IMG/VR virus record: IMGVR_UViG_3300026088_000011
Source of the DNA: a virus
Lineage: Duplodnaviria; Heunggongvirae; Uroviricota; Caudoviricetes
DNA: 58,245 bases
Reading direction: 5' to 3' (one strand)
Shown: one piece after another, positions 5,517 to 58,245 of the stretch
Layout: the number at the start of each line of letters is the position of its first letter
How positions within the stretch are numbered: position 1 is the first letter of the stretch
Notes under the pieces: generated by a model
What the model saw: the letters and a program-made list of their open reading frames with translations, nothing else
What the model was told of the DNA's origin: nothing
The model's database searches: none
Translations under genes and position numbers: made by a program

Positions 5517-6674
5517 ATGTCAGATTTCTCATTAACCACCGTCTTTGTTGTTCCAGTAGGGAATACACTCCCTAGCTCTGGTAGCACACAAGACTTAACT
5601 GCTGGTCAGTTTGGTATATTCAGAAGTGATTACACAGTAGCCACTGCTGGTAACATTGCTGCATCTGCTTACTTCTACCTTGCACAAGGAAGAACTAATA
5701 CTTACCTACAAGGAAGTAAACGTTCTGATAAAATCAAGGGATGTGCAACAGCCAATTGTACTTCAAATGTAACAGATTGGCGTAAGGTCACTGGATGTGC
5801 TACTGCTGCTACTCAAGTAACAGATGTAAGTGGATGGAATGTAAAATGTGGTGATATTCTCACTCTTACATTACGTGCCCAATCTTCTTATCTTTCTACT
5901 CTTTATTTCAATGGTTTCACTCGTTCAGTAACTGTTCAAGCTCCTTGTTGTGCTTGCGGTGCTGATCCTTGTACCGTTGTAGATGTACCTGCTCTTATTG
6001 ATAAGCTTATCATAGCACTAAATCAAGCAGCTCCTGGTAATAATTCAGATAATATTTCTCTTTCAGATTTCTATCAATTCCAACGTATAGGAAACAACTC
6101 ATCTGCAATTCTTCGTATTTCTGGTAAGCCTCTTACTAGATATGGACAACCTTGCGATATTGCTGCCTTTCCTTACGAATATGATAGAATGTGGTTTAGA
6201 ACATTCGTATTCTCTGGTCCTGCTACCACAGCAGACTTTATTGTACCAGATGCTTGTGATATTGTAGCTACAGCCACTGTAACACAAAGAGCCACTTATG
6301 CAACAGGTCAATCTGATGAAATTAAACAACTTGAAAAGAATTTCTATAGCTATCAAGCTGGATATTTGAAGAGTCTTTACAGAATGAACGGTTACAATGA
6401 GAACTTCGAATCTTGGGTAACTGATGGTACAAACTATGATACTTTCTATATTCGTTTTAATGAAATAGATAAATCAGCATATCAATGGGGAGATTATATT
6501 CCTGAAGACAGTCTTGTCATCATAGCAACTCCTTCATCTGTAACTGCTGGTATTCAAACTGTTTTGGAAGCTGCTTTAGGTACAGTAGTTACTGATAACG
6601 CTTGTATTACGACAACTAGTACTACAACTACTGTTTGGCCTACTACTTCAACAACTTCTACACTTATACCTTAA
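5517..6674 (+). CDS. Auxiliary capsid (decoration) protein with C-terminal Thr-rich tail
   Basis: 385 aa, beta-rich, CCACGADPC motif, ends CITTTSTTTTVWPTTSTTSTLIP; last gene before a strong terminator, in the position of the crAss auxiliary capsid gene. Confidence 0.65.
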   Translation: MSDFSLTTVFVVPVGNTLPSSGSTQDLTAGQFGIFRSDYTVATAGNIAASAYFYLAQGRTNTYLQGSKRSDKIKGCATANCTSNVTDWRKVTGCATAATQVTDVSGWNVKCGDILTLTLRAQSSYLSTLYFNGFTRSVTVQAPCCACGADPCTVVDVPALIDKLIIALNQAAPGNNSDNISLSDFYQFQRIGNNSSAILRISGKPLTRYGQPCDIAAFPYEYDRMWFRTFVFSGPATTADFIVPDACDIVATATVTQRATYATGQSDEIKQLEKNFYSYQAGYLKSLYRMNGYNENFESWVTDGTNYDTFYIRFNEIDKSAYQWGDYIPEDSLVIIATPSSVTAGIQTVLEAALGTVVTDNACITTTSTTTTVWPTTSTTSTLIP

Positions 6675-17700: not shown

Positions 17701-19389
17701 CAGATATATTCATATACAACAATTGATACAGGATTTCAAACCCTTATAGATTTGCAATCTTTGATAAGCTCTCCTTCTACAATAACAATATTTGGAGGAG
17801 ATACATTTATTAATAAATTTGCTTTTAAAACAAAACTACCCTTCTTTATAGATAATAGAGTGGGTGCTCCTGATGACAGTGATATATTCTATGATGAAAT
17901 AGGGAATGTTGCCTATCCTCAATATTGGCACTCAGCTAGGTCTATATTATATGATTATAAGGTGAATGCCACACCTACTTATGGGAAAAATTTAATATCC
18001 ATAAAAGCTCATTATTTTGATTGTCCAAACAATCAACTTCCTGTACCAGATCCAGTGGCTACTCCTCCTGTTGTAAATCCAGGAAGAACTTATTATGATG
18101 GTAAGATGTATATGTTCGCTTATGGAATACCATCGTTTTATTGTGAAAGTTCTGTAAATGTAGATTTAAGACAAGCATTTAATAATAGAGAAGGAGATTT
18201 CTTTCCTCATGTCACTAAGAATATTCCTGATGATTGGGTTCAAGAGAGTTTTGTACCTATTGTTCAGGATAATACATACTATTATAATGTATCTTATTCG
18301 AAACAAAATAATGAGAATTTTATATCACACCTACCCCCTAATTGGACTTCTCAGTTGTGTTTCACTCATTTTCCATTTAGAAGCATATATTCTGATCCTC
18401 AGCAAAGTTTTACAGATAATAAGATAAATGCATGGTTGATATACAGACCAATTTCCTATTTTGATTTCCCTCAAAACTACGGTAGGCTTGTATCTTTAGA
18501 TGGTATAGAAAATAAGGCTATTTTAGCCAGATTTGAAAATAAATCATTATTATACAATACTTTACTTACTATTAATACTAGTAATCCAAAAGCAGCCTAT
18601 TTAGGAAACGATACATTATTTAGAAGTAGTCCTCCTATAGATTTTGCAGAAACAGATTTAGGATTTGTAGGAAGTCAACATAAATTCTTATTGAAAATTC
18701 CTCAAGGGCAAGTAACAATAGATGCTAAAAGAGGACAAGTATTTCTTATAATGGGAGGTCAAGTTAAGGATTTATCCCAATTTGGGAGTGGTATGAATAG
18801 ATTCTTTACAGATCATTTAGCTTTTGAAATATTAAGATATTTTCCAGATGTAGATATAGATAACAATTTTAATGGAATTGGGCTACATGGAGTATATGAT
18901 AGTAAATTTGATAGAGTTATAATTTCTAAATTAGATTATATTCCGGTAAGAGGAGACATTAAATATGATAGTATAAATAAAGAATTCTATATAGATCATA
19001 TCTATTCCCAGAATGCTCCCACTACATCTAGTACCACTACAAATCCTGATGCAACTACTACATCCACAACAACTATTCCTCCTATTGTAGTTAGAGAAAT
19101 TGTAGAATTAACAGATAGAGACTACTTTTGTAACAAATCATGGACTCTCTCATATAATATAAATACCCAATCTTGGACAAGTTTTCATAGTTATATCCCT
19201 AATTACTATATAGCAGAGAATAATTTCTTCTATTCAGGAATAAACGAAGGATGTGATTTAGAAGCAATAGCTGCTGTAGAAGTCCCCACCACTTCTACTA
19301 CCACTACAATAACACCAGATTGCACTATAGAGGGGGTTGCATATTTAGCAAGTTGCGGAATAGAAGGAGTAGCATTTAAAGAAGCATAA
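14788..19389 (+). CDS. Muzzle / tail stabilization protein (main part)
   Basis: 1533 aa; beta-propeller-type N-terminus (IYWTDGLNSRRFLDL), late SWTLSYN...WTSFHSYIPNYY block typical of crAss muzzle proteins; GTG start. Confidence 0.8.
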   Translation: MADQQSNIQQENNIARLGMNMDLSVNQIPKGQYTYSLNGNVENFDANGISIQNESGNELCLEFPTDFKLIGNHFIQEQNKHIFFLTNPNTGDSQIGYMNNNDCIYLVYIDDPCLNFNIHYPILKCVHKITNCSTEIYWTDGLNSRRFLDLNNIPYRTIIGDTICDVKTFKEIDCNKLKVQPNFTIPQLVVSDVINGGDNIAGTYQFAVQYCDVAGDGYTSYYSITNPTPLFNPLVSTLDFNYHINKSIVLDITNIDVTGYFKYFNVAVIKTINNITSVELVNTYFIDDDHKQVIYSGQNQTQIRLTVNDIFEKFPYYDIAQDVTAVQDILVWDQLTSIDRINYQQIASKISLYWETWRIPSSETYADETNSTNLRGYLRDEVYPFEIVFQLANGKETDGFHIPGRLALPSDLLDVPPINDDFIGTPDPVTGNLPYWKIYNTASLIATDSGFTNSSTYKGPYQYGNFSYWESSETYPCNTDVWGDLAGQPIRHHKFPDVLVSPIFESSIYTSGSPITPVMEESAIFPIGVRIDASQVAQLVASSNLTSAQKEAIVGFKIVRGDRSTNKSIVAKGILRNVGKYNRQGNDYYFANYPYNDLRTDPFLLENTNAFNAQCNTYKFAVTVTGTYQYTDCFTNSTITADMTSGETVQVCSLTVPVIVSGTVTLPIQQLNYDTYQLIANNNPTIFSYTDIDNNVQSISVFRDNPVTVQVKVGTTPAVLFPFSGTSIQINTFRNDLCYPANLSAFSTDDSKFRYVFNSPETSFGQPFLGNVLKLENVVFGAGKAHFVEVKKNALYKLLTKEAQEDALKSSYDIANITAPFNATAMFTAYQAYLQIYINGITRKNYGWSYNSIASYNYWADVNNNLGIKQRELDIAQYLIPVVQSVNESNSIVVNNYQRESSIYLKTKGSVALPYASQTPSLIISGTTSAIEDKSRYVNSQKDCAHPQNQFDISVVSYYGSIKDNILNQWGQIYSYTTIDTGFQTLIDLQSLISSPSTITIFGGDTFINKFAFKTKLPFFIDNRVGAPDDSDIFYDEIGNVAYPQYWHSARSILYDYKVNATPTYGKNLISIKAHYFDCPNNQLPVPDPVATPPVVNPGRTYYDGKMYMFAYGIPSFYCESSVNVDLRQAFNNREGDFFPHVTKNIPDDWVQESFVPIVQDNTYYYNVSYSKQNNENFISHLPPNWTSQLCFTHFPFRSIYSDPQQSFTDNKINAWLIYRPISYFDFPQNYGRLVSLDGIENKAILARFENKSLLYNTLLTINTSNPKAAYLGNDTLFRSSPPIDFAETDLGFVGSQHKFLLKIPQGQVTIDAKRGQVFLIMGGQVKDLSQFGSGMNRFFTDHLAFEILRYFPDVDIDNNFNGIGLHGVYDSKFDRVIISKLDYIPVRGDIKYDSINKEFYIDHIYSQNAPTTSSTTTNPDATTTSTTTIPPIVVREIVELTDRDYFCNKSWTLSYNINTQSWTSFHSYIPNYYIAENNFFYSGINEGCDLEAIAAVEVPTTSTTTTITPDCTIEGVAYLASCGIEGVAFKEA

Positions 19390-19393
19390 AATT

Positions 19394-19954
19394 ATGGCAC
19401 AAACAGTATTAATAACATTAAGTATAGCAGGAACAGATACAGGTCCTTTTGATTTATATTCAAATGTAGATGGTTATGTTACCCCATTTGAAACGGGTAT
19501 AAGTAGAGCCTCTCTTTTGGCTGGATATACATCTGTTGTGGTTCCTGATGCAGCTTTTATAATAAGAGTTCAGTCTACTAGTATCGCCTGTCCTAATTTT
19601 ACAGATTTAACTATTGTTACTTCTACCACTACTACCACATCAACTTCTTCTACAACTACCACCTCAACATCTAGTACTACAACCACAACTACAACAGCAG
19701 CTCCTATTGTAACTTATAGTTATTATTTTGCAGATGTGTATGCTTGTCCTGGATGTGCTCCTACTTCTAGTACAATTGTGGCTGTAGTTAATCCTCATAC
19801 TCTCACTGTAAATAAATTCTATTATCAAATAGGTACTATTACAGCTACAGAATGTTACAAAATTACAGGTACTGGAGCACCTGCTGGTCCTTATCCAATT
19901 ATGGAGTATACTGCTCCATCTAATACTTGTGCGTTTGCTTGTATTGTTGCATAA
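19394..19954 (+). CDS. Small Ig-like domain + 26-residue Thr/Ser tract + Cys-rich domain; putative virion decoration
   Basis: 186 aa; TSTTTTTSTSSTTTTSTSSTTTTTTT linker; N-domain paralogous to the N-terminus of 19969. Confidence 0.7.
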   Translation: MAQTVLITLSIAGTDTGPFDLYSNVDGYVTPFETGISRASLLAGYTSVVVPDAAFIIRVQSTSIACPNFTDLTIVTSTTTTTSTSSTTTTSTSSTTTTTTTAAPIVTYSYYFADVYACPGCAPTSSTIVAVVNPHTLTVNKFYYQIGTITATECYKITGTGAPAGPYPIMEYTAPSNTCAFACIVA

Positions 19955-34800: not shown

Positions 34801-37800
34801 TAAGGAAAAAGCTTATATTGGTAAACCTTCTGGGGTTAAATCTGTTTCCTTATCTACTGATCAAAATAGAGTGAATTTCCTAAAATCATTAGGAATAGAA
34901 TTCAAAGTGAGTGAACTTTCTAAACTATCCCCAGACAAAATTGATAGTTTTAGAGAAGCTACAGCAGGTATAAAGAAGAGTATTGAGAAAGCTGAAAAAA
35001 TAGCTACAGTGAGCAGAAAGGTGTTAGATATTAAGGGTAGGTTAATGCAACTTTCCCTTATCAGAGCATCTATTGATAATCCTGAATTTGATAGTACATT
35101 TTTTAATGTAAAAGGTGAAAGAACACAAACCTTCATAGGAACCAATCCTGTAAGTGACTTATTTGATGTTCTCTCTCAAATAACCAATAAAAGGCAACTT
35201 ATCAATACTCCTTATGAATATCTATTGACTGATAGTTTTTCACAAGGAAGTGTAATCCTAGATAAGATATTCAATCCTACTACAGGAAATAGAATTAAAG
35301 GAGGAGAACAACTCATCCATCCTGGATATGCTGATGGTACTATTAATACAGAAAATGGTAAGAAGAAACAATCTGCCAAATTGACATATAAAGAAAGACT
35401 AGTACAAGAAATAAATCTTAATCTAAAAGGATACTATTACAATCTTGTACCTGGAGATGCTTCTATGGAATGGATGGTGTACATGGGAAATCATGTTTCT
35501 CCTGATGCCTTGTTGTCTGGATTCTCGCAAGTACATACTATATTTAAAAACTACTTTATATCAGAATTAGAACTCTCTAGAGAAGATAGATCTACAGCCA
35601 AAAAGAAGAATTCAGAAGACTTAAGATTTTTAAAGTCTATACTTGGAGCTGAATTACAAACTTCTATATTAAAGGAAAAAGGTACTCCTGAGGAGATATA
35701 TGAAAAATATACATCACAGATAAACAAAGCTGTAGAGGCTTTTATTAAACAAGAATCTACTAATTTAAAATCTCTTCTTTCAAAATACTCTATTATCAAA
35801 GAATCTGCTGAAGGATATGAAGTTGAGAATCTTTCATTCTCTGAAGGAGATAATATCAAAGAAGCTACGTTAGATAGACAATTGAACGCTCTAACAATCA
35901 ATTATGTAATTAATAATATAGAGCTTCACAAGTTATTATATTCTGATCCTTATCAATATTCTGATGAATTAAAACGTATTAAAAATGCCAATTCTCCTAG
36001 ACAGGCTATAATCAATAATTCTCCTAATTTCAATAAGTCTTTAAACAAGATGTGGAATAAAGGATATGACAAAGATGATGTAGGATATACTGATATGACC
36101 AGAGACTATTTTAGAACCATCACATCTGAAGATGTTGTATCCAGTTCTGATTTAAAGGATTATGGAAATTTTGAGGAAACTGATGGTGGAGGTATAATTT
36201 CTATGAAAGCCTATAGATGGTTTAGGATCAAGGCAGGTGAATGGAACGATGATGAGGAAAAACAGTATAGGTATGATGTAGCTTTTGAAAAGGATAAGAA
36301 GAATCTCCCTTTATCATGGGAAGAACAATCTCTTTTAAATGGAACCAATCCTGAAGTACAGAGTGCTTACACTCCTATTAAACCTATTGTATTTGGAAAT
36401 AAATTATCCAATAAGAATTATAATGATATTGTATTGGATAAATTTGCTCTCTACCCTCTTTCTTATAGAATATCTTATTCTCTAAATCCTGAGAGTAATG
36501 CAATTAAGCATTATAATAAAATGCAATCTGAGAATATTGATTATTCTGTATTTCAATCAGGTAGAAAAGTGGGTTCTGAAGGAATAAATCCTCTTTATAA
36601 TGAGGATGGTTCATTTAATGAAAACCCATATGAAGCCATTATAAACATTTCTCATGGTATAATTTCTATACAATCTGAAGTTCCTTCTAAGGATGAGCCA
36701 ATTGTAACAAGAGGATCACAAATTACTAAACTTGTTACTATGGACTTTATGGAAGCTGGAGTTCCTATAGATTTCAATAAAGGTAAAAACTACACAGAAA
36801 GATTTAATGAATGGAGCAAATTGTCAGAAGCTCAAAGACTAAACAAATCCCCTTTATATAAGGAAATAAAGAATAACCAAAAGCTTCTAGAGAGTATTAT
36901 CGATCAAGGGTATTCTTCTCTTCTTACAAGAATGGGTATTGAAGAAACAAAAGATGGCACTTTTATCATTAAAGATTTTGATAAGATAGCTAATACCCTT
37001 AAGGATGAAGTATTAAAAAGAGAGGTAAATGACAATATTATTGATGCCTTTGAAGGATTTAAGAATGGGGATGTTGTATTAGAAGCCACTCCTGCTTACC
37101 AACAAATTCGTAATGTACTATATTCTATAGCTGACAAAAACGTTATTTCTCCTAAGATTTCAGGAGGTCAAAAAGTGCAAATTCCCTCTACTTTACTAGA
37201 GTCAGTTAGAGCCAAGAAAGAAAAAGGAGCTTATACATCTGATGTATTGAGATTTTATGAAGATAAAGATGGTAAAAGAACTTGTGAAATAATGGTGGGG
37301 AAATGGTTTAAAAGTCCTCTTTCTGATGAAGAACTTATTAACTATTTGAATAAAACCAAAGAAGGGCAATCTCTATTATCTGGTGTGGCATACAGAATTC
37401 CTACACAGAAACAAAACTCTATCGATTCCTTTGTAATTAAACAATTCCTTCCTAGGGAATTTGGAGACTCTGTTATTATTCCTTCAGCTCTTGTTAAGAA
37501 GGTAGGATCTGACTTTGATATTGATAAACTCTTCATCTATTTCAAAAATACATATAGTAACATCAAAGGTAATTTGAAAGAGATTCCTTTTTTAGGATTT
37601 GGAGAAGAGGCTAAAAACAAGTTTTCTGAACTTTATGAGCAAGGAGAGTTCTTAAATAAAGAACAAAGAGAAAGAGTAAATAAGTGGATAAAGGCTAAAC
37701 AAGAAGATGAAAGTAAAGATACCCTATCTAAACTAGCTACAGATATATTTGGAGAAGATGCTTTTGATCAAGAGGTGATAGATGACTTTTTAGAGTCAAA

Positions 37801-40572: not shown

Positions 40573-43500
40573 ATGGCCTGTAAAATAAGTTATATTCAAG
40601 CTGCTCCTCTATCAGAATCTGAGAAACTTAGATTGGAAAATCTACATATAGAAATTTTTAGTAAAGCTAAAGAAAGTGGAGATTTCAGAAATTTTGATGG
40701 AAAATTATATACCCTCAAGGAAGGATATTCAAAAGGTATATCCTTCGTAGCTGGAATAAATAAGGAATATTCTACTCCTGTAGCTAAAATTAATACAAAA
40801 GCTCCAGGTCAACATTATTTATCAGTGGATGTACTTCCTTTAACTATTGAAAAACAGGAAGTAATGTTCCAAAAGTCCACATTAGAACCATCTATAGCTA
40901 CAGAGGAAACCATTAAATTAGTGAAAGAAGTAGCTAAAAAAATGGGAATAGATATTCAAGAATTGAAAGGTAAAGAGGGAGTAAATGCTACAGCAGACTT
41001 AATTTCTGGTATTATAGCTATTGCTGAAGGAAAGGAATCTGAGGCTATTACAGAGGAAACTGTACACATCGCTACAGCCATTTTAGAGCAAACCAATCCT
41101 AAGATGGTGACAGAAATGATTGCCAAAATTGACAAATTCCAGATATATAAGAGGGTTTATAATGAATATAAAGATACATACACACTTCCAAATGGAAAAC
41201 CTGATATTAGGAAGATAAAAAAAGAAGCTGTAGATAGACTTATAGCTGAAATAATTGTAAACAATAATGAGAATTTAGATCAAAATCCTGAATTAAGAGA
41301 GGAAATTAACCAATCCTTAGTAAAAGGATGGTGGAATTCTATTCTTCAATGGATAAAGAGTTTATATAAAAAGGCTAATATTGACATATTTAAACAAGCT
41401 GCTTCTGATATTCTTACAAAGGATATTGGTACAGTGGAAGATATTAAAACAGAAGGAACATTTTACCAACTATCTGATAAACAGAAAGATATACAACAGA
41501 AATTAGCTGATACACAAATAAAGGTAGAAAAGGTAGAAGATGTTAAAAATTCTGACCCATTATTATTGGATTCTGAGGAAGCTAATAATTTCTATAGAAT
41601 ACAAAAAGAAGATGGATCTTGGGAGAAAATTACTAAAAGGGTTACAGATAGGGTAAAAGCTTGGTATAAACAAAGATTTGGCAACAATGTATTTTCAGCT
41701 CAAGAAAAGGAATTTAATGAGCTTAAAAGGAAATATGGTGTAGAAGGACATGCTGATTTTGAAGAAATTCACACCAGATATTATAATGAAGATGGTACTA
41801 AAAGAGAAACTCCTTTAGAAAGACCAGATAAATTCAATCTTCCTTCTAGGGAAATGTATGATAAATTAGAGAAGTATTATGTGGAACTTGTAAATACATT
41901 TCCTCAAGATACATTAATATTCTCTGAAGTGATAATTTATGATGAAAAACAGAAAGAAGCAGGAACAATAGATTTCTTGGCTGTAGAACCTTCTGGTAAA
42001 ACCTCTATATTTGATTGGAAATTCATGAATTTTGGTAAAAATCAAGAGGATGTTGCTTGGTACAAACAAGGAGCTTATAATGTTCAAATAGGAAGATATA
42101 AAGAAATTCTTAATAAACAATATGGAATTAAGGAATTTGGACAATTAAGAGCTATTCCTATTACAATGAACTTTGAGAATAAAGATAAGAAAGACAAAAA
42201 ATCTCCTTTATTATTAAAGTCTATAGGTATAGGTAATGTCAATCCAACAGCTATGGAGCCACTTACCCAACTTCCTATAGCTGAAGAGTCAGAATCTACA
42301 GGATATGAAGCTTTGGATAATATTATAAAGAGACTTAATGCTCACCTAAGACAAGTAAGTAAAGAAAAAACTACCAATGAAGAGGATAAACAGTTTAAAA
42401 TTGAAAGACTTAATATTCTTAACAAGGCTATTAGACATGCTCACATTACACATAATGTTGTACCTCTTATACAGGTTATTGAGGTGATGAGAAAAGAAGG
42501 GGATAGAATCTTGGATGATTATTCTCTTTCTTACAAAAATAGACCTGCTACATTAGCTGATAGTACAAATGAAGAACTATCAGATTTTGCTGAGGAAATG
42601 AGGGATTATATTAAACTCTCTGAAGTATTTACAGATATTGGGGATGATTTAGGAGGACTTATATACACTGAAGAAAATAATAAAGATAATCCTACAGAGG
42701 CAGAGAAAGCAGATGCTCTTATAAGAAAACAATATCTAGATATGCTTGAAAGAGAATCTAGACTTATTAGAAAGTCTCAAAAGGAGATAAAAAAGGCAGC
42801 TTTAGCATTTGCTGACAAACATATAGGGGAACGTAATCTAGTAACAGGGTTATTAAAACCTGAGAAAATAGTTAAAGGACTTGGTAGTTTATTTAGAGGT
42901 GTAAGTGAACTCCCTCTTCGTTCCTTAGAAATATTACATAAACTTACCAGATCAGCACAAGGAAAAGCCTCCACAGATGCTCTAAAAGAGATCACTTCTT
43001 TAATGGATATTAGGAAGAAAATAGCAGATAAAGGTGTAGATATAAGAGATTTTATCAAGCAAATCTATCAAAAAGACAAGGAAAACAAACTTGTAAATAA
43101 ACTTATTCTTAAATATAATAGTGAATTCTTCAAAGAAATTGATGAAAAATCATCAGAAGGAGGAGATATTAAGTGGTTGAAAGAGAATATTAATGTAGAA
43201 GAATATAAGAAAGAAGCTCAAAAAGTTATAGATAGACAGATAGATAATATCAATAAAACTAGGTATAACGGATCTGAAGAGGAAGAAGAACTTATTAGAG
43301 ATGCTGAAAAAATCAGAGTTAGGAAACTCTATGATATTGATAGAGAAGACTTTAATGGTTGGAATAACTATATTCTAAAAAGACATCCTCTTGATAAATG
43401 GTATTCAGATGAATATAAAAATGTCTTAAAAGATCCTCTTTTATTAGAACTATACAATTTTGTTGTAAATTTCAATGAAAAGGCCAAGGAAATAGGATAT

Positions 43501-45597
43501 TTGGATAATAAGGTGGCTAGTAGCTTTCTTCCTTTTGTTAGAAAATCTATGGCTGAACAACTATCATTTGACAACACTCTATCTCCATTAGATGCTTTTC
43601 AAAAGAGTGTACAAATTAATATTGATGATGTAGGATATGGAAATATTAATGAGGTAACAGGAGAGCTTGAAAATAGCATTCCTAAATACTACACTCACGA
43701 TTTTACCAAAACTGATGGTGTAAATGACTATTCTCAGGTGAGTGAAGATTTGTTTAAGAATCTTATTCTTTATATCCAACAAGTAGAGAAGTATAAGTAT
43801 ATGTCTGAAATTGAAGGACAATTAAAACTTGTTAAAACTATAGAGGAATTCAAAACCCATCTTAATACAGGTAGAACAGGTGATGTTATAATGAAAGATG
43901 GTAAACCTGAAGAGCTTCCAGGGAATGCAGAGAATACTAAAATGTTTGATGATTTTCTGAGAGTGTTATTATATGATCAAAGATATGTACTCTCTGATAG
44001 TGATACCCCATTACATATAGATAAGGTTTTAAACTTTGTTAAAAAGAGTGTAAATGGTGTAGTCGGGAAAGAAATATGGAAAGAAAATGAAAAACCTACA
44101 GCTACATCAATGATAAAAGCTATCGATGCCGCCAATAGAGGATTTCAATTAAAAACTTTAGGATTTGAGTTTATATCAGGAGCTGTCAACATGTTTGGAG
44201 GAAACATCCAAATGGCTACACAATCAGGAAATTACTTCAAAGCTAGAGAATTTGCTAAGAATGAAGCTAAATTAACCTTCCAAAAGTTTGCCAATGAGGA
44301 GGATAAAGAACTATTCATTCAATTAGTAGACATTTTTATGCCTTTAAAAGATGATCCTTCCTATGAACTCTATAAACAAGCAGGATTAACAACTCTTACT
44401 AGACTTAATCTAGGAGATACTCTAATGGTATTTATGCGTAAACCTGAACAATTAATAGAAAAATCTGTATTTCTTTCTCTATTAGAGAATACAATGGTAG
44501 TGGATGGAAAAATAGTGAATATTAGAGAGTTTGTTAAGAATAAGTATAAAAATAGATATGATGATGCTTCCTCTTATAACCAAGTAAAGGATAAAATAGA
44601 AGCAGAAATAGAAGAATTAAAGAAAACTTCCTCTATAAATACCACTAAAAAACTGGAGGATGGGAAACTTGTAATCCCTGGACTGGATTTAAAGAATAGA
44701 GATGAGCTACAAAGACTTACTAATCTATCTAGAAGAATTTCTAGAAACGCCACCGGAGGTATGACAGATGGGGATATAAATAGAATGTCTATGTCTATTT
44801 GGACTAAATCTATGATGATATTCAAAGGTTGGATACCTAAACTAGCTGATACAAGGTTCTCTGAATTCAGAAAGGTGAGTGATGATTTCTCTGTAAGAGT
44901 GAATGAAGATGGAATAGCAGAAGGAGAAAAGTACGATATTGGTAGAATAAGGCTTTTAGCCTACATCCTATCAGATGGAATATTCAAAGGTGTACAAAAT
45001 GTAAAGAACATTGTAGCTCTTAATTCTCAAGGATTAGAACGCTTAGATAAGCTTTTTGAGGATTTTAAGCAAAAATATGAATCAGAAACAGGAGAAGCTC
45101 TGAATATGTCTAGAGAAGACTTTATTGATCTTATTAGAACCAATTTAAGAAATCAACTAAAAGAACTTGCAATATTTGCTAGTTTAATAGGAATGGCTCT
45201 TAGTTTAGGATTTATGGCTCCAGATGATGATGAGGATAAGGCTACTAAGAACTTCTTCAGATATAGTCAAAAAGTACTAGATAAGTTTGTAAATGAACTT
45301 TCATTCTTCTATAATCCTGCTGATTGGGAATCTCTATTATCAGGAGGTATATTTCCTGCTGTAGGTATAATTGAAGATATGCAAAGATTTATTATTCATT
45401 TCTTCCAACAAACTACAGGACTAGACTTTGATCCTAATACATCATATGATGATGTTAGAAAGAAGGCTCAACCTATTAAAAATGCTATGAAAATGCTGCC
45501 GATTACTAAAAGTGCAGTTACTTACCTTGCTATATTTAATGAAAATTGGGCTAAAGAATTTGATGTCACTGTGTCTAGTAGTAGTAAGAGACACTAA
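40573..45597 (+). CDS. Large ejected virion protein with PD-(D/E)xK (RecB/Cas4-like) nuclease domain
   Basis: 1674 aa; GHADF...SEV...AGTIDFL...IFDWK...QIGRY motif set (core 41959-42021); EETVH zincin-like relic; hydrophobic helices near the C-terminus. Confidence 0.75.
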   Translation: MACKISYIQAAPLSESEKLRLENLHIEIFSKAKESGDFRNFDGKLYTLKEGYSKGISFVAGINKEYSTPVAKINTKAPGQHYLSVDVLPLTIEKQEVMFQKSTLEPSIATEETIKLVKEVAKKMGIDIQELKGKEGVNATADLISGIIAIAEGKESEAITEETVHIATAILEQTNPKMVTEMIAKIDKFQIYKRVYNEYKDTYTLPNGKPDIRKIKKEAVDRLIAEIIVNNNENLDQNPELREEINQSLVKGWWNSILQWIKSLYKKANIDIFKQAASDILTKDIGTVEDIKTEGTFYQLSDKQKDIQQKLADTQIKVEKVEDVKNSDPLLLDSEEANNFYRIQKEDGSWEKITKRVTDRVKAWYKQRFGNNVFSAQEKEFNELKRKYGVEGHADFEEIHTRYYNEDGTKRETPLERPDKFNLPSREMYDKLEKYYVELVNTFPQDTLIFSEVIIYDEKQKEAGTIDFLAVEPSGKTSIFDWKFMNFGKNQEDVAWYKQGAYNVQIGRYKEILNKQYGIKEFGQLRAIPITMNFENKDKKDKKSPLLLKSIGIGNVNPTAMEPLTQLPIAEESESTGYEALDNIIKRLNAHLRQVSKEKTTNEEDKQFKIERLNILNKAIRHAHITHNVVPLIQVIEVMRKEGDRILDDYSLSYKNRPATLADSTNEELSDFAEEMRDYIKLSEVFTDIGDDLGGLIYTEENNKDNPTEAEKADALIRKQYLDMLERESRLIRKSQKEIKKAALAFADKHIGERNLVTGLLKPEKIVKGLGSLFRGVSELPLRSLEILHKLTRSAQGKASTDALKEITSLMDIRKKIADKGVDIRDFIKQIYQKDKENKLVNKLILKYNSEFFKEIDEKSSEGGDIKWLKENINVEEYKKEAQKVIDRQIDNINKTRYNGSEEEEELIRDAEKIRVRKLYDIDREDFNGWNNYILKRHPLDKWYSDEYKNVLKDPLLLELYNFVVNFNEKAKEIGYLDNKVASSFLPFVRKSMAEQLSFDNTLSPLDAFQKSVQINIDDVGYGNINEVTGELENSIPKYYTHDFTKTDGVNDYSQVSEDLFKNLILYIQQVEKYKYMSEIEGQLKLVKTIEEFKTHLNTGRTGDVIMKDGKPEELPGNAENTKMFDDFLRVLLYDQRYVLSDSDTPLHIDKVLNFVKKSVNGVVGKEIWKENEKPTATSMIKAIDAANRGFQLKTLGFEFISGAVNMFGGNIQMATQSGNYFKAREFAKNEAKLTFQKFANEEDKELFIQLVDIFMPLKDDPSYELYKQAGLTTLTRLNLGDTLMVFMRKPEQLIEKSVFLSLLENTMVVDGKIVNIREFVKNKYKNRYDDASSYNQVKDKIEAEIEELKKTSSINTTKKLEDGKLVIPGLDLKNRDELQRLTNLSRRISRNATGGMTDGDINRMSMSIWTKSMMIFKGWIPKLADTRFSEFRKVSDDFSVRVNEDGIAEGEKYDIGRIRLLAYILSDGIFKGVQNVKNIVALNSQGLERLDKLFEDFKQKYESETGEALNMSREDFIDLIRTNLRNQLKELAIFASLIGMALSLGFMAPDDDEDKATKNFFRYSQKVLDKFVNELSFFYNPADWESLLSGGIFPAVGIIEDMQRFIIHFFQQTTGLDFDPNTSYDDVRKKAQPIKNAMKMLPITKSAVTYLAIFNENWAKEFDVTVSSSSKRH

Positions 45598-45654: not shown

Positions 45655-45662
45655 TATTTTTG
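45655..45662 (+). promoter_or_regulatory. Perfect -7 element before the 45669 gene
   Basis: TAttTTTG 6 nt before ATG; no matching -33 TTTG. Confidence 0.4.
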
Positions 45663-45668
45663 TACATT

Positions 45669-45980
45669 ATGAGAACTGCTAATATTTGCCCCACTTGTGC
45701 AACATTTATAAATGCTGCATGTATTGTATATGATGGAGATCTTCTAACCAACTTAGATGTAGCTCCTCTAGACACCTTAGATATTATTCTAGGGAAGATT
45801 AATGATGCTTTAGAGCCTCAAACTGGTCATGGCAACCCTACATCCAATGTTGTATTTGTAGGTCAATTTTATATTGACTTGGATGCTCCTGCAATATGGA
45901 TAGGGTTAGCAGCAGGAATCCCTGATTGGGGTTATTTTGGTAGTATTTCAACTACTACAACTACCACAACAACTAGTTAA
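45669..45980 (+). CDS. Small fibre-anchor-module protein with poly-Thr tail (start revised to ATG 45669)
   Basis: CPTC...CIVYDGDLLTNLDVAPLDTL aligns without gaps to the anchors of 7729 and 8849; ends STTTTTTTTTS-type tract. Confidence 0.7.
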   Translation: MRTANICPTCATFINAACIVYDGDLLTNLDVAPLDTLDIILGKINDALEPQTGHGNPTSNVVFVGQFYIDLDAPAIWIGLAAGIPDWGYFGSISTTTTTTTTS

Positions 45981-53788: not shown

Positions 53789-53893
53789 ATGCCAGTACCA
53801 AATCAACAGATAGGATCTAGTAGGAAAGTCAAATGGCTTCAAACTATATCAAAACAGATAGAGAGATTAACAAAAATTCTATCTACCAAATAA
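53789..53893 (+). CDS. 34-aa microprotein, stand-alone paralog of the 50861 anchor; not in ORF track
   Basis: Manual translation MPVPNQQIGSSRKVKWLQTISKQIERLTKILSTK*; 15 identities to the first 32 aa of 50861. Confidence 0.75.
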   Translation: MPVPNQQIGSSRKVKWLQTISKQIERLTKILSTK

Positions 53894-53921: not shown

Positions 53922-54935
53922 ATGAGAGATTTAGTATTTATACAATGTGCGCCTTGTGATGATTATTACTGGTGGCAAACTCATTTATGGTTAGAAAGTC
54001 TAAAATCAATAGGAAAATCAAATAAAGCAATTTCTCTAATATTTACGCCTAATTACAGAGATAGGAATTCTAAATGGGATGAATTAGTTAAACTATATCC
54101 TGAATCAGAATTCTTCTTCTATAAAGATACTGATAGAATAAGTGAAAAATTAATAAGAATTTATATTCCTATTATACGACCTTATATTCTGATGAAATAT
54201 TTCAAATTACATCCAGAATTAAAGGAAAAAGCTATTTTTTATTGTGATTGTGATATTCTTTTTACAGAAAAATTCAATATTGACAAATTTTTAGATGATG
54301 ACGTATGTTATCTATCAGATACACTTAGTTATATAAATGCTAGTTATTTTGATAGTAAAGTAAAAGATGTTATTCCTGAGAAACTAGAGCAATATAAAAC
54401 TAGAGATATATTAGATGAAACTTGTAAATTAGTTGGTATATCCAGGGAAATAGCAGAGAAGAACAATTTACACTCTGGAGGAGCACAATATCTTTTAAAG
54501 AATATAGATTGGACATTCTGGGATAAATGTATAACAGACTGTATTAGAATTAGACATCATCTTCAAGAAGTAAATAAATATTTCTTTGAAAATGAGAATA
54601 AAGGATTTCAATCCTGGTGTGCAGATATGTGGGCAGTCTTATACAATTTATGGAATAGGGAACAAGAAACTAAAATAGTTCCAGAAATGAATTTTGCATG
54701 GAGTAGTGATAATATTTCTAAACTAGAAACCTGTCCTATATTCCATAATGCAGGTATCGTAGGGGAAAAACAAGGAGAAACCCCTGTATTTTATAAAGGA
54801 AAATATCATCAAGGAGCTAATCCTTTCGAAGATAGTCATTTAGAACTTGTATATAACAATGAACAATCTAAAACTCTTTGTAATTGGTATTATGTAGAGC
54901 AGTTAATAAAATTAAAACAAAAATATAATTATTAA
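53922..54935 (+). CDS. GT-A glycosyltransferase resembling HPAT/SGT1 peptide O-glycosyltransferases
   Basis: CxxYxxWQT, YxxIxRP, DxD (YCDCD), SGG and WCADMW motifs in the order recalled for plant Hyp-arabinosyl-/Ser-galactosyltransferases. Confidence 0.65.
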   Translation: MRDLVFIQCAPCDDYYWWQTHLWLESLKSIGKSNKAISLIFTPNYRDRNSKWDELVKLYPESEFFFYKDTDRISEKLIRIYIPIIRPYILMKYFKLHPELKEKAIFYCDCDILFTEKFNIDKFLDDDVCYLSDTLSYINASYFDSKVKDVIPEKLEQYKTRDILDETCKLVGISREIAEKNNLHSGGAQYLLKNIDWTFWDKCITDCIRIRHHLQEVNKYFFENENKGFQSWCADMWAVLYNLWNREQETKIVPEMNFAWSSDNISKLETCPIFHNAGIVGEKQGETPVFYKGKYHQGANPFEDSHLELVYNNEQSKTLCNWYYVEQLIKLKQKYNY

Positions 54936-54938
54936 AAT

Positions 54939-55112
54939 ATGGCAAATATAGATAAACCTGTACTTAAGGCATTTGTTAGGATAGACGGAACTGGTCGTGA
55001 TGTGAGTGGTAGTTTAATCCTTAGATTAAAGATGCCTAAAGTAGGTAAATGGCGTGAGATTCAAGCATACCAATGCTGTGATCCATTTACTACTACGACA
55101 AGTCATCCTTAG
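54939..55112 (+). CDS. 57-aa basic microprotein ending CC-DPF-TTTTS; not in ORF track
   Basis: Manual translation MANIDKPVLKAFVRIDGTGRDVSGSLILRLKMPKVGKWREIQAYQCCDPFTTTTSHP*; starts 3 nt after the GT stop. Confidence 0.75.
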   Translation: MANIDKPVLKAFVRIDGTGRDVSGSLILRLKMPKVGKWREIQAYQCCDPFTTTTSHP

Positions 55113-55151
55113 TTTTTGAATTTATTCTAAACCAATTTTTAACTACATTTT

Positions 55152-56501
55152 ATGGTGGTTGTTTCTGTTATTGTACATAATAGGTTGTCTAATGTTGAGG
55201 AATGGATAAGGTGTTGGAAACAATGTAATACTCAAGATGCTCAATTAATAATTATTCACAATTATAATAATACTAATGATAAGAATGAATGCAGTAAACT
55301 TTGTAGAACAGATGATATTGCTTATATTCCTAGACTTAATACAGGATTTGATATAGGTGCATTTCAAGATGTTTGTAGAGGGAGATTAGAAGGATTCCCT
55401 ACAGAATATGACTATCTCTTGTGGTGTACAGATGATGTGCTCCCTATGAGTAAAGATTTTATAGAAAGATATATTGCTGTATTTAAAGATGATATTTCTT
55501 GTGTATGTTATGAATTAAGTAATGAGGTTACTAAACATATACGTACTACAGGATTTATGATGAGAAAAAGGGAGTTAGCTAATATTGTATTTGCAGTAGA
55601 TCCTATAGCTCATAAAGAGGAATGTTATGAATTTGAACATAAGAGAAAAAGTAGAGTGGTTACTCTCTTTGAACAAGTGGTTCAATGGGGAAGAATAGTT
55701 CAAGTAGATGCTGTTGAATATGCTCCTTTATGGGATAGTGGACATGAAAGTCCACAAGCTAAAGGAAGATTTAAAAGAAGACATCAAGAACATATAGAAG
55801 CATTTCCAACTCTTCCTAAAGTATTAAATTTAAATCCTCTTCCTGAGGATAATAAAATTACATTTATTTGTCCCATTTTCAATACTTTTCCTGAAATTGT
55901 TAGTAGTTTAATTAATCAAACCTATAAGAACTGGGAACTTTTATTAATACACGATGGTCCTAATTCCACTAATTTAAGAAAAGTAATAGATGCTATAGGA
56001 GATAAAAGGATTAAATTTATAGAGACAGAAGAAAGAAAACAGCAATGGGGTCATCCAATACGCCAATTTGCACTCAATAACATTGATGTATTATCTCCTA
56101 ATACATCATATATATGTGTGACAAACGGAGACAACCATCATGTCCCTCATTTTTGTGAGTTTTTATTAAATGGGTTTTCAAATCCTTACTATATAGCGGT
56201 TTTTTGTTCCCAGTTCGTACATTCATATGATTCTTCTCAGAAAACTACAATAATTGAAAATAATCAAAGATCTTGCGGTAATATTAATTGGGAAATATAT
56301 AAATATGGAATAATTGATACCAGATTACAATTAGGATATATAGACAGCGCCTGTGTAATTATCAGAAAGGATATAGCCGTAGAAAGTGGATGGGACGATT
56401 TTAGTCATTCTAGTGACTATAGTTACTTTAAAAGGATAATAGACAAATATGGAGCTGATAGGTGGGGTAGTGTCCGCGGAACTTTAGTAGTGCATAATTA
56501 A
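55152..56501 (+). CDS. Tandem two-domain GT-A (GT2-like) glycosyltransferase
   Basis: Domain 1: VSVIVHN...IIIHN...NTGFDIG...LLWCTDD; domain 2: ITFICPIFN...SLINQTYKNWELLLIHDGP...VTNGDN. Confidence 0.8.
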   Translation: MVVVSVIVHNRLSNVEEWIRCWKQCNTQDAQLIIIHNYNNTNDKNECSKLCRTDDIAYIPRLNTGFDIGAFQDVCRGRLEGFPTEYDYLLWCTDDVLPMSKDFIERYIAVFKDDISCVCYELSNEVTKHIRTTGFMMRKRELANIVFAVDPIAHKEECYEFEHKRKSRVVTLFEQVVQWGRIVQVDAVEYAPLWDSGHESPQAKGRFKRRHQEHIEAFPTLPKVLNLNPLPEDNKITFICPIFNTFPEIVSSLINQTYKNWELLLIHDGPNSTNLRKVIDAIGDKRIKFIETEERKQQWGHPIRQFALNNIDVLSPNTSYICVTNGDNHHVPHFCEFLLNGFSNPYYIAVFCSQFVHSYDSSQKTTIIENNQRSCGNINWEIYKYGIIDTRLQLGYIDSACVIIRKDIAVESGWDDFSHSSDYSYFKRIIDKYGADRWGSVRGTLVVHN

Positions 56502-56513
56502 CAAACCAATTTT

Positions 56514-58245
56514 ATGACAGTTGTTTTATTTGGAGGCAATGGGACTTTAGGAATAGAATTACAGAAAATAAATCCTGATATACTTTGTCCTACAAAATCA
56601 GAAATTGACATCAGGAATATAAAAGATGTTGAAAACTATATAAGAAAGTATTCTCCTGATATAGTGATTAATTCTGCTGCTATTATTGATAATAGAGCCA
56701 TTGAAAAAGATAGTATTCCTGCAATTGAAACTAATATTATTGGAAGTGCTAATATTTCTATAATTTGTTCTAAATATGATATTAGATTAGTCTACATTTC
56801 TACAGACTATATCTATTATGATGGAAATCAAGGTAATTACAAGGAAACCGACCCCCTACTACCATTTAATTTATATACCTGGACTAAGTTAGGAGGAGAA
56901 TGTTCTGTAAATGGAGTTAAAAATCATTTAATCATTCGTACTTCTTTTGGAAAGAATGAATTTTCATATTCTGTAGCTTTTATAGATAAATGGGCTTCCA
57001 AGGATTATGTAGATAAAATAGCTCCTTTAATATACGAAGCCTCAATGAGTCCCTTAATAGGAGTATTAAATTTGGGTACAGAGAGAAAAACTCTATTTTC
57101 TCATGCTAAAGAACGTAATCCTAATGTTTCTCCTATAAAATTATCAGAAACGAGTTTTAACACTCCTTATGATACCTCTCTAAATCTCCAGAAATGGATA
57201 GATTATAAATCAGAATCTCCTATTGCTAAATCTCATACCCATTGTAGAGCATGTAATTCTACAAAATTAACTAAATATTTAGATTTAGGATTGATGCCTT
57301 TAAGTAATAACTTAGAAACATCTTCTAAATTAGCTAGAAATAAGCAAAGATTTCCTCTTCAGGTGATGGTATGCGAAGAATGTTATTTAACACAATTATC
57401 AGTGGTGATTGATCCTAAGGAGATGTATAGTTACTACACATACAGATCTTCTATAAATAGACCATATCTACAGCATTGTAGAAATATGGCTAAAGATTTA
57501 AAGGATAAATACAATCTTTCTTCTGACAGTTCTCACATAGATATTGCCTCAAATGATGGATCTCTTCTAAAGGAATTCAAAGAGGAAATAAATATTAAAG
57601 TGTTAGGTGTAGATCCTGCTGAAAATCTAGCAGCAATAGCAGAATCTCAAGGAATTCCTACAATAGCAGATTTTTGGTGTAAAAGAGTGGGTGAGGAAAT
57701 AGTGAGTAAATACGGAAAAGCTCAATTAATAACAGCTACTAACGTATTTGCTCATGTTGACAATATTAGAGAATTCATAGAAACTGCCAAATTAGTCCTA
57801 TCTCCAAGTGGTGTATTAGTGATAGAATGTCCATATTTAGTAGACTATATTGAACATTTAGAGTACAATCAGACATATTTTGAGCATTTGTCAACAATGT
57901 CTATATCTCCTATAAATCACCTTTGTGATACATTAGGGATGAAAATAATTGAAGTGAACAAGTATAATATACATGGAGGTACAATAAGAATTACAATAGC
58001 TAAACAATCATCTAAATATGATGTAGCTCCTTCTGTTCATGATTTTATAAAAAATGAAGAAAAGAAAGGGTATACATCGAAAGAACTATATTCTGAATGG
58101 CAATCTAAGGTGAAAGAAAGCATTTCCTCTATATCAGAAAATCTTCTAAATTTAAAGAAAAAAGGATATAAATTATCTGGATTTGGAGCATCCGCTAAAG
58201 GTAATACACTTTTAAATGCTTGTAATGTTACAACAGATATAATGG
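56514..58245 (+). CDS. Fusion of RmlD-like NDP-4-keto-sugar reductase and NDP-hexose C-methyltransferase (3' end outside window); not in ORF track
   Basis: Manual translation, open to the window end: GGNGTLG, VINSAA, ISTDY, YTWTK (YxxxK), IIRTS; then in frame HCRAC...LDLGLMPLSNN, CEEC, DIASNDG, GVDPA, NVFAH, YFEH, HGGTIR, GASAKGNTLL. Confidence 0.88.
   Translation, partial: MTVVLFGGNGTLGIELQKINPDILCPTKSEIDIRNIKDVENYIRKYSPDIVINSAAIIDNRAIEKDSIPAIETNIIGSANISIICSKYDIRLVYISTDYIYYDGNQGNYKETDPLLPFNLYTWTKLGGECSVNGVKNHLIIRTSFGKNEFSYSVAFIDKWASKDYVDKIAPLIYEASMSPLIGVLNLGTERKTLFSHAKERNPNVSPIKLSETSFNTPYDTSLNLQKWIDYKSESPIAKSHTHCRACNSTKLTKYLDLGLMPLSNNLETSSKLARNKQRFPLQVMVCEECYLTQLSVVIDPKEMYSYYTYRSSINRPYLQHCRNMAKDLKDKYNLSSDSSHIDIASNDGSLLKEFKEEINIKVLGVDPAENLAAIAESQGIPTIADFWCKRVGEEIVSKYGKAQLITATNVFAHVDNIREFIETAKLVLSPSGVLVIECPYLVDYIEHLEYNQTYFEHLSTMSISPINHLCDTLGMKIIEVNKYNIHGGTIRITIAKQSSKYDVAPSVHDFIKNEEKKGYTSKELYSEWQSKVKESISSISENLLNLKKKGYKLSGFGASAKGNTLLNACNVTTDIM

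Follow-up and report, generated by a model that had tools for sequence, protein, structure and literature searches.

The window analysed here is the whole 58,245-nucleotide stretch of IMG/VR virus record IMGVR_UViG_3300026088_000011 (Caudoviricetes), and the system in question is a group of four genes at its end that begins with a glycosyltransferase (GT) gene at position 53922. Comparison of phage genomes shows that the family of this 337-residue enzyme is coupled, by presence and absence, to poly-threonine (poly-Thr) tracts in several independent phage lineages. We consider it fairly likely that the 53922 enzyme glycosylates poly-Thr tracts of the phage's own particle proteins, and that an accessory pair encoded downstream, a tandem GT (55152) and a reductase/C-methyltransferase fusion (56514), probably elaborates the glycan. 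The phage particle is therefore probably sugar-coated, whereby threonine as the acceptor, the identity of the sugar and its biological role are what we infer. A sequence-only reading of the window had proposed that 53922 primes Thr and Ser of virion proteins; the core of this proposal is strongly supported by the comparative evidence and the fold, the glycan itself being putative. To our knowledge, experimental proof of glycosylated virions comes so far from only a few actinobacteriophages (mycobacteriophages).

Coupling of a glycosyltransferase family to poly-threonine

Related loci with and without the GT gene were compared. Among 27 IMG/VR loci with homologues of the tail-tube protein of the Enterococcus phage phiFL1A (Enterococcus-type), the tail-tube protein ends in poly-Thr in 12/12 cases with the GT gene downstream and in 0/15 without it (Fisher p = 6e-8, uncorrected for relatedness). 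Both states occur in a subclade of 79-100% identity and again in one of 64-68%, which implies at least two independent gains or losses. In 80 loci with homologues of the capsid protein of Lactococcus phage CHPC836 (Lactococcus-type), all five capsids that are accompanied by the GT have double poly-Thr tails, while only 4/75 without it have a run of at least four Thr. The same picture emerges when entire genomes of the Bacteroidota/crAss-related assemblage are compared. Eight of them have the GT, namely Chryseobacterium phage MA9V-3 and seven IMG/VR genomes that are near-complete (99-100% by CheckV), and these contain 6-49 Thr6-coding matches each, all on one strand, against 0-5 for a reversed-pattern control. 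Four genomes that share the muzzle-type protein discussed below, csAssE-Sib, phi17:2, Leptolyngbya Lbo-JY46 and Flavobacterium Fpv1, contain none, and a profile search with MA9V-3 as positive control found no GT in them. The co-occurrence with poly-Thr on structural proteins that the sequence-only reading implied is thus found in tail tubes, capsids and whole genomes.

The coupling can also be approached from the tracts. Among IMG/VR stretches chosen by a Thr7-coding pattern, 8/118 contain the GT family, compared with 0/114 poly-Asn controls (p = 0.007); two weak matches among the controls are to non-GT domains of fusion proteins. We rely on this locus-level test because the corresponding control on whole records is small (0/20 poly-Asn records positive, p = 0.35).

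Gene order in cultured phages fits well with these counts. The GT gene lies directly behind the major tail protein gene in Enterococcus phiFL1A and Clostridium phiCTP1, and directly behind the capsid gene in Lactococcus CHPC836 and Lacticaseibacillus iLp84. Capsid and tail proteins of these four phages end in poly-Thr, with the exception of the phiCTP1 capsid protein. In Chryseobacterium MA9V-3 both genes upstream of the GT carry long Thr/Ser tracts, and Staphylococcus PT94 and Lactobacillus Iacchus likewise have poly-Thr proteins beside the GT gene or in its virion module. The endings of the tails are alike in unrelated phages: T4-S-H-P and T7-H-P in the window and its relative G108 (55089-55112, 45948-45980), T5-S-H-A and T7-H-A in Lactococcus capsid and tail proteins (L087, L320-L345). 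This may be part of what the enzyme recognizes, or coincidence.

What kind of enzyme is coupled to the tracts is revealed mainly by its predicted structure. The 337-residue protein has no Pfam or NCBIfam match, a sequence search of the PDB returned only poxvirus core proteins (E about 0.2), and the PHROG family that it matches, phrog_4417, is of unknown function. An exhaustive search of the 50%-identity clusters of a 1.8-billion-protein library yielded 743 cluster representatives, some of them fused to methyltransferase, GT2, O-fucosyltransferase or GlcNAc-transferase domains. The AlphaFold model (pLDDT 97, pTM 0.93) is a single compact Rossmann-like alpha/beta/alpha GT-A domain starting from residue 4, with hundreds of GT-A matches (Foldseek, VIA; top Z 14.2), and both aspartates of the DxD motif, D109 and D111, are invariant in 43 homologues of 30-52% identity. 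These results bear out the GT-A identity that had been read from the letters. By its model the protein is a retaining GT-A glycosyltransferase, predicted to be soluble and cytoplasmic.

Families GT95 and GT96 consist of retaining GT-A enzymes that start a glycan on the hydroxyl amino acids of extended, repetitive stretches of protein. Members of these two families are the best predicted-structure matches over all 337 residues: the top Swiss-Prot entry in AFDB is the Arabidopsis peptidyl-serine alpha-galactosyltransferase SGT1 (GT96, E 6e-10, TM 0.59), followed by the HPAT/RDN hydroxyproline O-arabinosyltransferases (GT95, TM about 0.6), the whole group spanning E values of 6e-10 to 3e-6 and TM scores of 0.59-0.61. 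The plant and algal enzymes differ from the phage protein in several respects. Those of plants are Golgi membrane proteins whose acceptors are Ser or hydroxyproline in extensin motifs, in place of the poly-Thr proposed here, and their aligned parts start at residues 57-68 (392 in SGT1), the phage protein having no equivalent N-terminal extension. Neither a signal nor a membrane anchor was noted in the phage protein, though no prediction of these was run. Among solved structures the highest-scoring are the GT8-type enzymes glycogenin (Z 14.2), the Skp1 galactosyltransferase AgtA (14.1) and GlyE (12.8), aligned over 211-231 residues and sharing the DxD metal site; LgtC, UGGT and PBCV-1 A64R (11.1) are further neighbours. 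Unlike the GT8-type enzymes, to which identity is only ~10%, the phage protein has no Pfam GT8 match, and the GT8 enzymes in the same AFDB search remain at TM 0.40-0.47, below the GT95/GT96 models. Several of these neighbours glycosylate proteins, namely glycogenin, AgtA, GlyE from the pathway of the pneumococcal serine-rich-repeat protein, and the PBCV-1 capsid enzyme A64R.

In the window itself, all six Thr/Ser tracts that the sequence-only reading had noticed are present, in the products of genes 5517, 14788 (two regions), 19394, 45660 and 54939 (Table 1). Thr6-coding DNA occurs five times in the window and in none of 100 shuffles. For comparison we used the closest complete relative, G108 (IMG/VR contig 3300035695_000002; 120,724 bp, direct terminal repeats, estimated completeness 100%), which carries all four genes with 77-87% protein identity to the window and also serves as a stand-in for the downstream part of the window genome. 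In assembled stretches covering all but about 1.3 kb of G108, tracts lie in the same proteins as in the window, and all are in virion-module proteins or the microprotein, bar one doubtful 57-codon frame. The Thr-tract proteins have no PHROG family. The homologue of the 14788 product is annotated as 'muzzle protein' in csAssE-Sib and as 'virion structural protein' in Cellulophaga phi17:2.

Directly behind the GT gene lies the gene for a 57-residue microprotein that ends in FTTTTSHP. It had been described as ending in TTTTS; the Thr run is there (55089-55103), but three more residues follow, so that it is not terminal. In the best 80 IMG/VR relatives of the 337-residue protein (61-87% identity), all of the window clade, a homologue of the microprotein is found downstream of the GT gene in every case, with 48-78% identity over the N-domain. 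The first 48 residues are conserved and end in a CC motif, directly followed by a run of at least four Thr in 47/55 distinct homologues. These runs vary widely in length, are often built from T7-AAP-T7 modules, and in some homologues continue into a further C-terminal domain. From these alignments the microprotein looks like a modular anchor with a Thr stalk and an optional distal domain, of which the window version would be minimal. No similarity was found between it and the Thr-tailed 106-residue protein.

Tail length also differs with the genes around it. Where the tandem GT and the fusion are present, microproteins are short-tailed, with CCDP followed by T4-T5 (window 54939-55112, L430:5338-5517, L431:9814-9984), and genomes lacking the two (L018, L042, L080, others) mostly have long T7-repeat tails, a comparison that is confounded by phylogeny. 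The same confounding applies to the Thr6 count of G108, which at 7 is among the lowest, most others having 13-49. G108 furthermore has a GIY-YIG homing-endonuclease gene between the GT and microprotein genes (L081:7775-8431) that is absent at that site in the window.

Particular to the window, then, is a GT that is a core gene of a large clade of environmental phages of ~90-120 kb related to crAss-like phages, to which at least 282 IMG/VR contigs belong. It comes with a dedicated Thr-tailed microprotein as partner, and a tandem transferase plus an enzyme for a branched sugar are added to the set.

The accessory pair and the proposed pathway

The first enzyme of the pair, a 449-residue protein, has a match to PF00535 in its C-terminal half (residues 245-406, 3.8e-10), and its model (pLDDT 90) consists of two Rossmann-type GT-A domains. 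The best matches in the PDB are the two-domain enzymes K4CP (E 5e-16), Mimivirus R699, LARGE1 and PmHS2, ranging from 5e-16 to 1e-10, and single-domain matches are SpsA, TarP and RmlT. Like K4 chondroitin polymerase, PmHS2, LARGE1 and R699/LH3, the phage protein as modelled combines two GT-A domains in one chain, but whole-chain TM scores of 0.27-0.35 indicate a different domain arrangement. Across 40 homologues D94/D95 of the N-domain and N325-x-D327-N328 of the C-domain are invariant; the latter domain thus has an N-x-D-N motif and no plain DxD. One of the two domains could be non-catalytic, as in LH3/R699. LARGE1 extends O-linked glycans on proteins. Mimivirus R699 is a collagen glucosyltransferase that likewise extends protein O-linked glycans (PMC9546862, PMC12279948).

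The frame of the fusion gene is still open at the window end, where about 70 residues are cut off relative to the 647-residue G108 homologue. Pfam domains in the window copy are RmlD_sub_bind (2e-31), PF08421 (2.6e-18), PF13489 (2.1e-12) and PF08484 (9.9e-20), the last rising to 1.4e-42 in the full-length G108 protein. Residues 237-645 of the latter match TylC3 (4rv9, 1.4e-75) and TcaB9 (7.5e-53), and its N-terminal part matches RmlD structures (1e-16). The identity as a reductase::C-methyltransferase, already suggested by the sequence-only reading, is supported by both the domains and the TylC3 match. As in TylC3, TcaB9 and KijD1, the methyltransferase part is complete with the N-terminal Cys4 zinc-finger, class I SAM and C-terminal PF08484 domains of NDP-hexose 3-C-methyltransferases (NDP, nucleoside diphosphate). 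The translation of the reductase part shows the motifs GGNGTLG (Rossmann), STDY and Y-T-W-T-K (catalytic Ser/Thr-Tyr-Lys). Its match to TIGR01214 reaches 106.9 bits, the equivalog cut-off being 224, and covers profile positions 1-148 of 285, and the part is best called an RmlD-like short-chain dehydrogenase/reductase (SDR) 4-ketoreductase domain below the RmlD equivalog level. Unlike TylC3 and RmlD, the phage protein unites both activities in one chain, its reductase part is short (~235 residues), and the phage has no RmlA or RmlB of its own. The same fused architecture is found in at least 120 protein clusters of 57-66% identity, on contigs of phage size.

The structural operon ends with both the tandem GT and the fusion in the window, in G108, in a 124-kb NCBI contig and in an 80-kb ENA contig, the two being adjacent except for one 214-residue open reading frame between them on the ENA contig. 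In L430 and L431 fibre genes separate them from the 53922 homologue, and in L431 they directly follow the Thr-tailed microprotein gene. Further sugar genes downstream of the window could be sought in G108: two short GT2 genes are there, on the opposite strand, but neither an RmlA nucleotidyltransferase nor a separate RmlB 4,6-dehydratase was found. The fusion enzyme must therefore draw on NDP-4-keto-6-deoxyhexose made by the host. The two GT2 genes (191 and 252 residues, L081:13455-14757, minus strand) stand at the start of the replication module, and homologues of the 191-residue protein occur in at least three relatives without the tandem GT.

Taken together, a pathway can be proposed in which the cytoplasmic retaining GT-A enzyme would attach a sugar to poly-Thr hydroxyls before or during particle assembly. 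Its acceptors would be the microprotein, the tail of the 385-residue protein, the muzzle-type protein, the 186-residue protein with its 26-residue tract and the 106-residue protein with its Thr8 tail. Poly-Thr tracts would serve as portable tags, and a mucin-like glycan coat or bristles would result. In the window phage and a minority of its relatives the two further late-operon enzymes probably elaborate this glycan: the tandem GT-A would add further sugars, and the fusion would methylate host-made NDP-4-keto-6-deoxyhexose at C-3 and then reduce the 4-keto group, yielding an NDP-3-C-methyl-6-deoxyhexose donor. This order of reactions is the one expected from what is known of how TylC3-type enzymes and RmlD work. 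Domain content suggests the rare branched sugar as a cap, and a common glycan for the pair and 53922 is presumed rather than observed. A bolder version would have a universal poly-Thr glyco-tag read by the single phage-specific family phrog_4417 in phages of Bacteroidota and Firmicutes, and, in the lineage of the window phage, a LARGE-like elongation into a repeating glycan with 3-C-methyl-6-deoxyhexose that forms polysaccharide bristles on a crAss-related phage; we regard this as doubtful. Were poly-Thr such a universal tag, any virion protein could become sugar-coated merely by gaining a Thr run.

If the proposal is correct, a single unannotated enzyme family would mark sugar-coated virions across many phage lineages, from abundant environmental phages related to crAss-like ones to phages that infect Enterococcus, Lactococcus, Lactobacillus, Staphylococcus and Clostridium. 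Such a coat would influence how antibodies recognize the particles and how they are cleared during phage therapy, how they adhere to mucus or host polysaccharides and how stable they are, and it would bear on virion proteomics and the interpretation of cryo-EM density. The simple rule of enzyme gene plus poly-Thr tract would predict modified proteins and offer a genetically encodable pair of tag and enzyme for glyco-engineering, and with the fusion a phage would have a compact way of making a branched-chain deoxysugar.

Alternative explanations and known systems

Several observations weigh against glycosylation of poly-Thr by the 53922 enzyme and elaboration by the pair. The GT95/GT96 enzymes are the best structural matches, yet they share just 12-14% identity with the phage protein and are linked to it by no Pfam model; the retaining GT-A clan is broad and includes enzymes with lipid, glycan and small-molecule acceptors. 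Our literature search found no biochemical or mass-spectrometric evidence for any member of the family, no paper describing a phrog_4417-type GT family or a poly-Thr tag, and nothing relevant on poly-threonine or threonine-rich tails with phage glycosylation or on HPAT with bacteriophage. Fisher tests ignore phylogenetic relatedness, and within the window clade the GT is a core gene, so that the coupling there consists of adjacency and of comparison with more distant phages lacking it. Lactobacillus phage SAC12B (L429) has the GT and no annotated poly-Thr open reading frame within 8 kb of it, and one Lactococcus-type capsid (L363) has a Thr7 tail and no GT gene in its 14.8-kb locus. In the window phage the tails sit on auxiliary and tail proteins, and the major capsid protein has none. 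Finally, 19 large genomes with a close homologue of the 337-residue protein were surveyed, of which 10 are 90% complete or more. Apart from G108, none has the tandem GT or the fusion, which are absent from 9/10 complete genomes.

This last result speaks against a single pathway of all four genes, as the sequence-only reading had drawn it. The core function does not require the pair, which may act on some other acceptor; the 337-residue enzyme and the Thr tracts form the core and the tandem GT and fusion an add-on. One could go further and assume that 53922 glycosylates poly-Thr while the pair belongs to another process, be it the remodelling of host surface polysaccharide or a lipid-linked glycan, or a sugar for some other phage product. 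Host-glycan remodelling during infection could block superinfection or free progeny. Such a separation would account for the nine complete genomes in which the 53922-type gene and plentiful Thr tracts persist without the pair, for the fibre genes in between in L430 and L431, for the wall-teichoic-acid enzymes TarP and RmlT among the single-domain neighbours of the tandem GT, and for the two additional GT2 genes in the G108 replication module. We nevertheless find it rather unlikely: the pair always stands at the end of the late strand that carries the structural genes, and in L431 right behind the microprotein gene, other neighbours of the tandem GT (R699, LH3, LARGE1) extend protein glycans, and a Pfam scan of the pair showed no membrane-protein, flippase or polymerase domain, although no membrane-span prediction was run.

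The remaining alternatives take the Thr tracts out of the enzyme's reach. If the tracts were plain flexible linkers or stalks of Bacteroidota-associated proteins, 53922 would act on a non-protein acceptor and the co-occurrence would reflect shared ancestry or a cassette. In many microprotein homologues the Thr run does join an N-terminal to a distal domain, and the retaining GT-A clan is functionally broad. However, terminal tails link nothing; the coupling is seen again across phages of Enterococcus, Lactococcus, Lacticaseibacillus, Clostridium, Staphylococcus, Lactobacillus (Herelleviridae) and Chryseobacterium, in which the proteins that carry tracts (capsid, tail tube, small head or tail proteins) are unrelated to one another, and among tail-tube proteins of 83-100% identity the tail comes and goes with the enzyme gene, which makes this explanation improbable. 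To hypermodification of phage DNA, as with the glycosylated hydroxymethylated bases of T-even phages or the MT/5mYOX/GT clusters of Pyle et al., with Thr tracts as unrelated linkers, we give very little chance. Phage GT-A and GT-B enzymes do glycosylate DNA, in clusters that can lie near structural genes (bioRxiv 10.1101/2023.12.21.572611), and nucleotide-metabolism genes are nearby (ribonucleotide reductase, MazG, a dGTP-diphosphohydrolase-like gene). Yet G108 lacks a ThyA-type hydroxymethylase (PF00303) and a C5 cytosine methyltransferase (PF00145), and neither the coupling to poly-Thr in small Firmicutes siphophages nor the position of the GT right behind capsid or tail-tube genes would be explained. 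We have largely rejected DNA glycosylation on these grounds; a search of G108 for TET/JBP was uninformative, as control genomes gave no match either. General O-glycosylation by the host was also rejected, since from general knowledge it acts outside the cytoplasm and virion proteins are cytoplasmic.

How would glycosylation of poly-Thr by the 53922 enzyme compare with what is found in mycobacteriophages? In that group a single phage can use more than one transferase together with sugar-modifying enzymes. A 2023 report by Freeman et al. (Cell Host Microbe 31:1216) is said to describe virion O-glycosylation in mycobacteriophages Che8, Corndog and Myrna. The window phage resembles these in combining phage-encoded glycosyltransferases with Ser/Thr-rich tails on virion proteins, such glycosylation being mentioned in two later papers (Freeman et al. 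2023, as cited in PMC13313380, PMC12582341). It differs in its nearly pure poly-Thr tag, in hosts of Bacteroidota type and Firmicutes, and in a putative enzyme encoded by a core gene beside that of a dedicated Thr-tailed microprotein. Among 77 phage records matching the 53922 protein (tblastn, E <= 1e-3) there is no Mycobacterium phage, and by this search the enzyme family differs from that of mycobacteriophages.

Gene neighbourhood of the window

All four plus-strand open reading frames of the group were confirmed where the sequence-only reading had placed them; they are listed in Table 1 together with the tracts.

Table 1. Genes of the proposed glycosylation group and Thr/Ser tracts of the window
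Feature	Position	Strand	Basis or remark
337-residue GT-A glycosyltransferase, phrog_4417 family, proposed poly-Thr O-glycosyltransferase (primer enzyme)	53922..54935	+	model, fold matches, co-occurrence
57-residue microprotein, 48-residue N-domain, CC motif and short Thr tail	54939..55112	+	homologue comparison
449-residue tandem GT-A (GT2-type), proposed glycan extender	55152..56501	+	PF00535 and model
Putative RmlD-like SDR 4-ketoreductase::NDP-sugar 3-C-methyltransferase, 577 of ~647 residues, to window end	56514..58245	+	Pfam, full-length homologue
C-terminal Thr/Ser tail, residues 362-383 of 385-residue protein (5517-6674), downstream of major capsid gene	6600..6665	+	kept in G108
Thr/Ser tracts, residues 1409-1430 and 1498-1508 of 1533-residue muzzle-type protein (14788-19389)	19012..19311	+	kept in G108
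Uninterrupted 26-residue Thr/Ser tract, 186-residue protein (19394-19954)	19619..19696	+	kept in G108
C-terminal S-T8-S tail, 106-residue protein (45660-45980)	45948..45977	+	G108 homologue ends T7-H-P

The window is a single long virion module on one strand, in which a major head protein is encoded at 1628, along with large virion proteins and one protein of 3735 residues. Ahead of the GT gene lie a 928-residue pectate-lyase-type tailspike (48056), a 509-residue protein (50861) for which Pfam and PHROG scans gave no family, and a 460-residue protein (52392) that matches a PHROG tail-fibre family. In G108 the fusion gene is followed by a DUF5856 gene and small open reading frames, and then, on the opposite strand, by the two short GT2 genes, RecA and a class II ribonucleotide reductase.

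A megablast of the region against cultured phages gave no match. Among phages in culture, its nearest relatives are a Leptolyngbya phage, Cellulophaga phi17:2 and phi4:1, Flavobacterium Fpv phages and the gut phage csAssE-Sib, and the capsid protein matched only Leptolyngbya phage Lbo-JY46, with 26% identity. The designation of the phage as crAss-like holds only loosely: a muzzle-protein homologue is present, but the records of these relatives are not in Crassvirales.

Just upstream of the GT gene a 34-residue open reading frame (53789-53893, plus strand) copies the N-terminus of the 509-residue protein (17/34 identical, E 1e-7), and many relatives have a homologue of it upstream of their GT gene. 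The frame may be left over from an exchange of fibre cassettes, or it may encode a short adaptor.

A short motif, AAACCAAT, occurs 13 times in the window where 4.6 occurrences are expected (0/100 shuffles reach 13), 12/13 of them on the plus strand and including sites at 243, 7321, 46029, 53906, 55129 and 56503. It stands 3-16 nucleotides ahead of the start codon of each of the three enzyme genes, and likewise of the genes that begin at 267 and 46043, which suggests a common leader or late-expression signal. Two large plus-strand frames of the virion module, 28874-40081 (3735 residues) and 40573-45597 (1674 residues), have no PHROG match and could encode cargo or virion-RNA-polymerase-type proteins of crAss-like phages.

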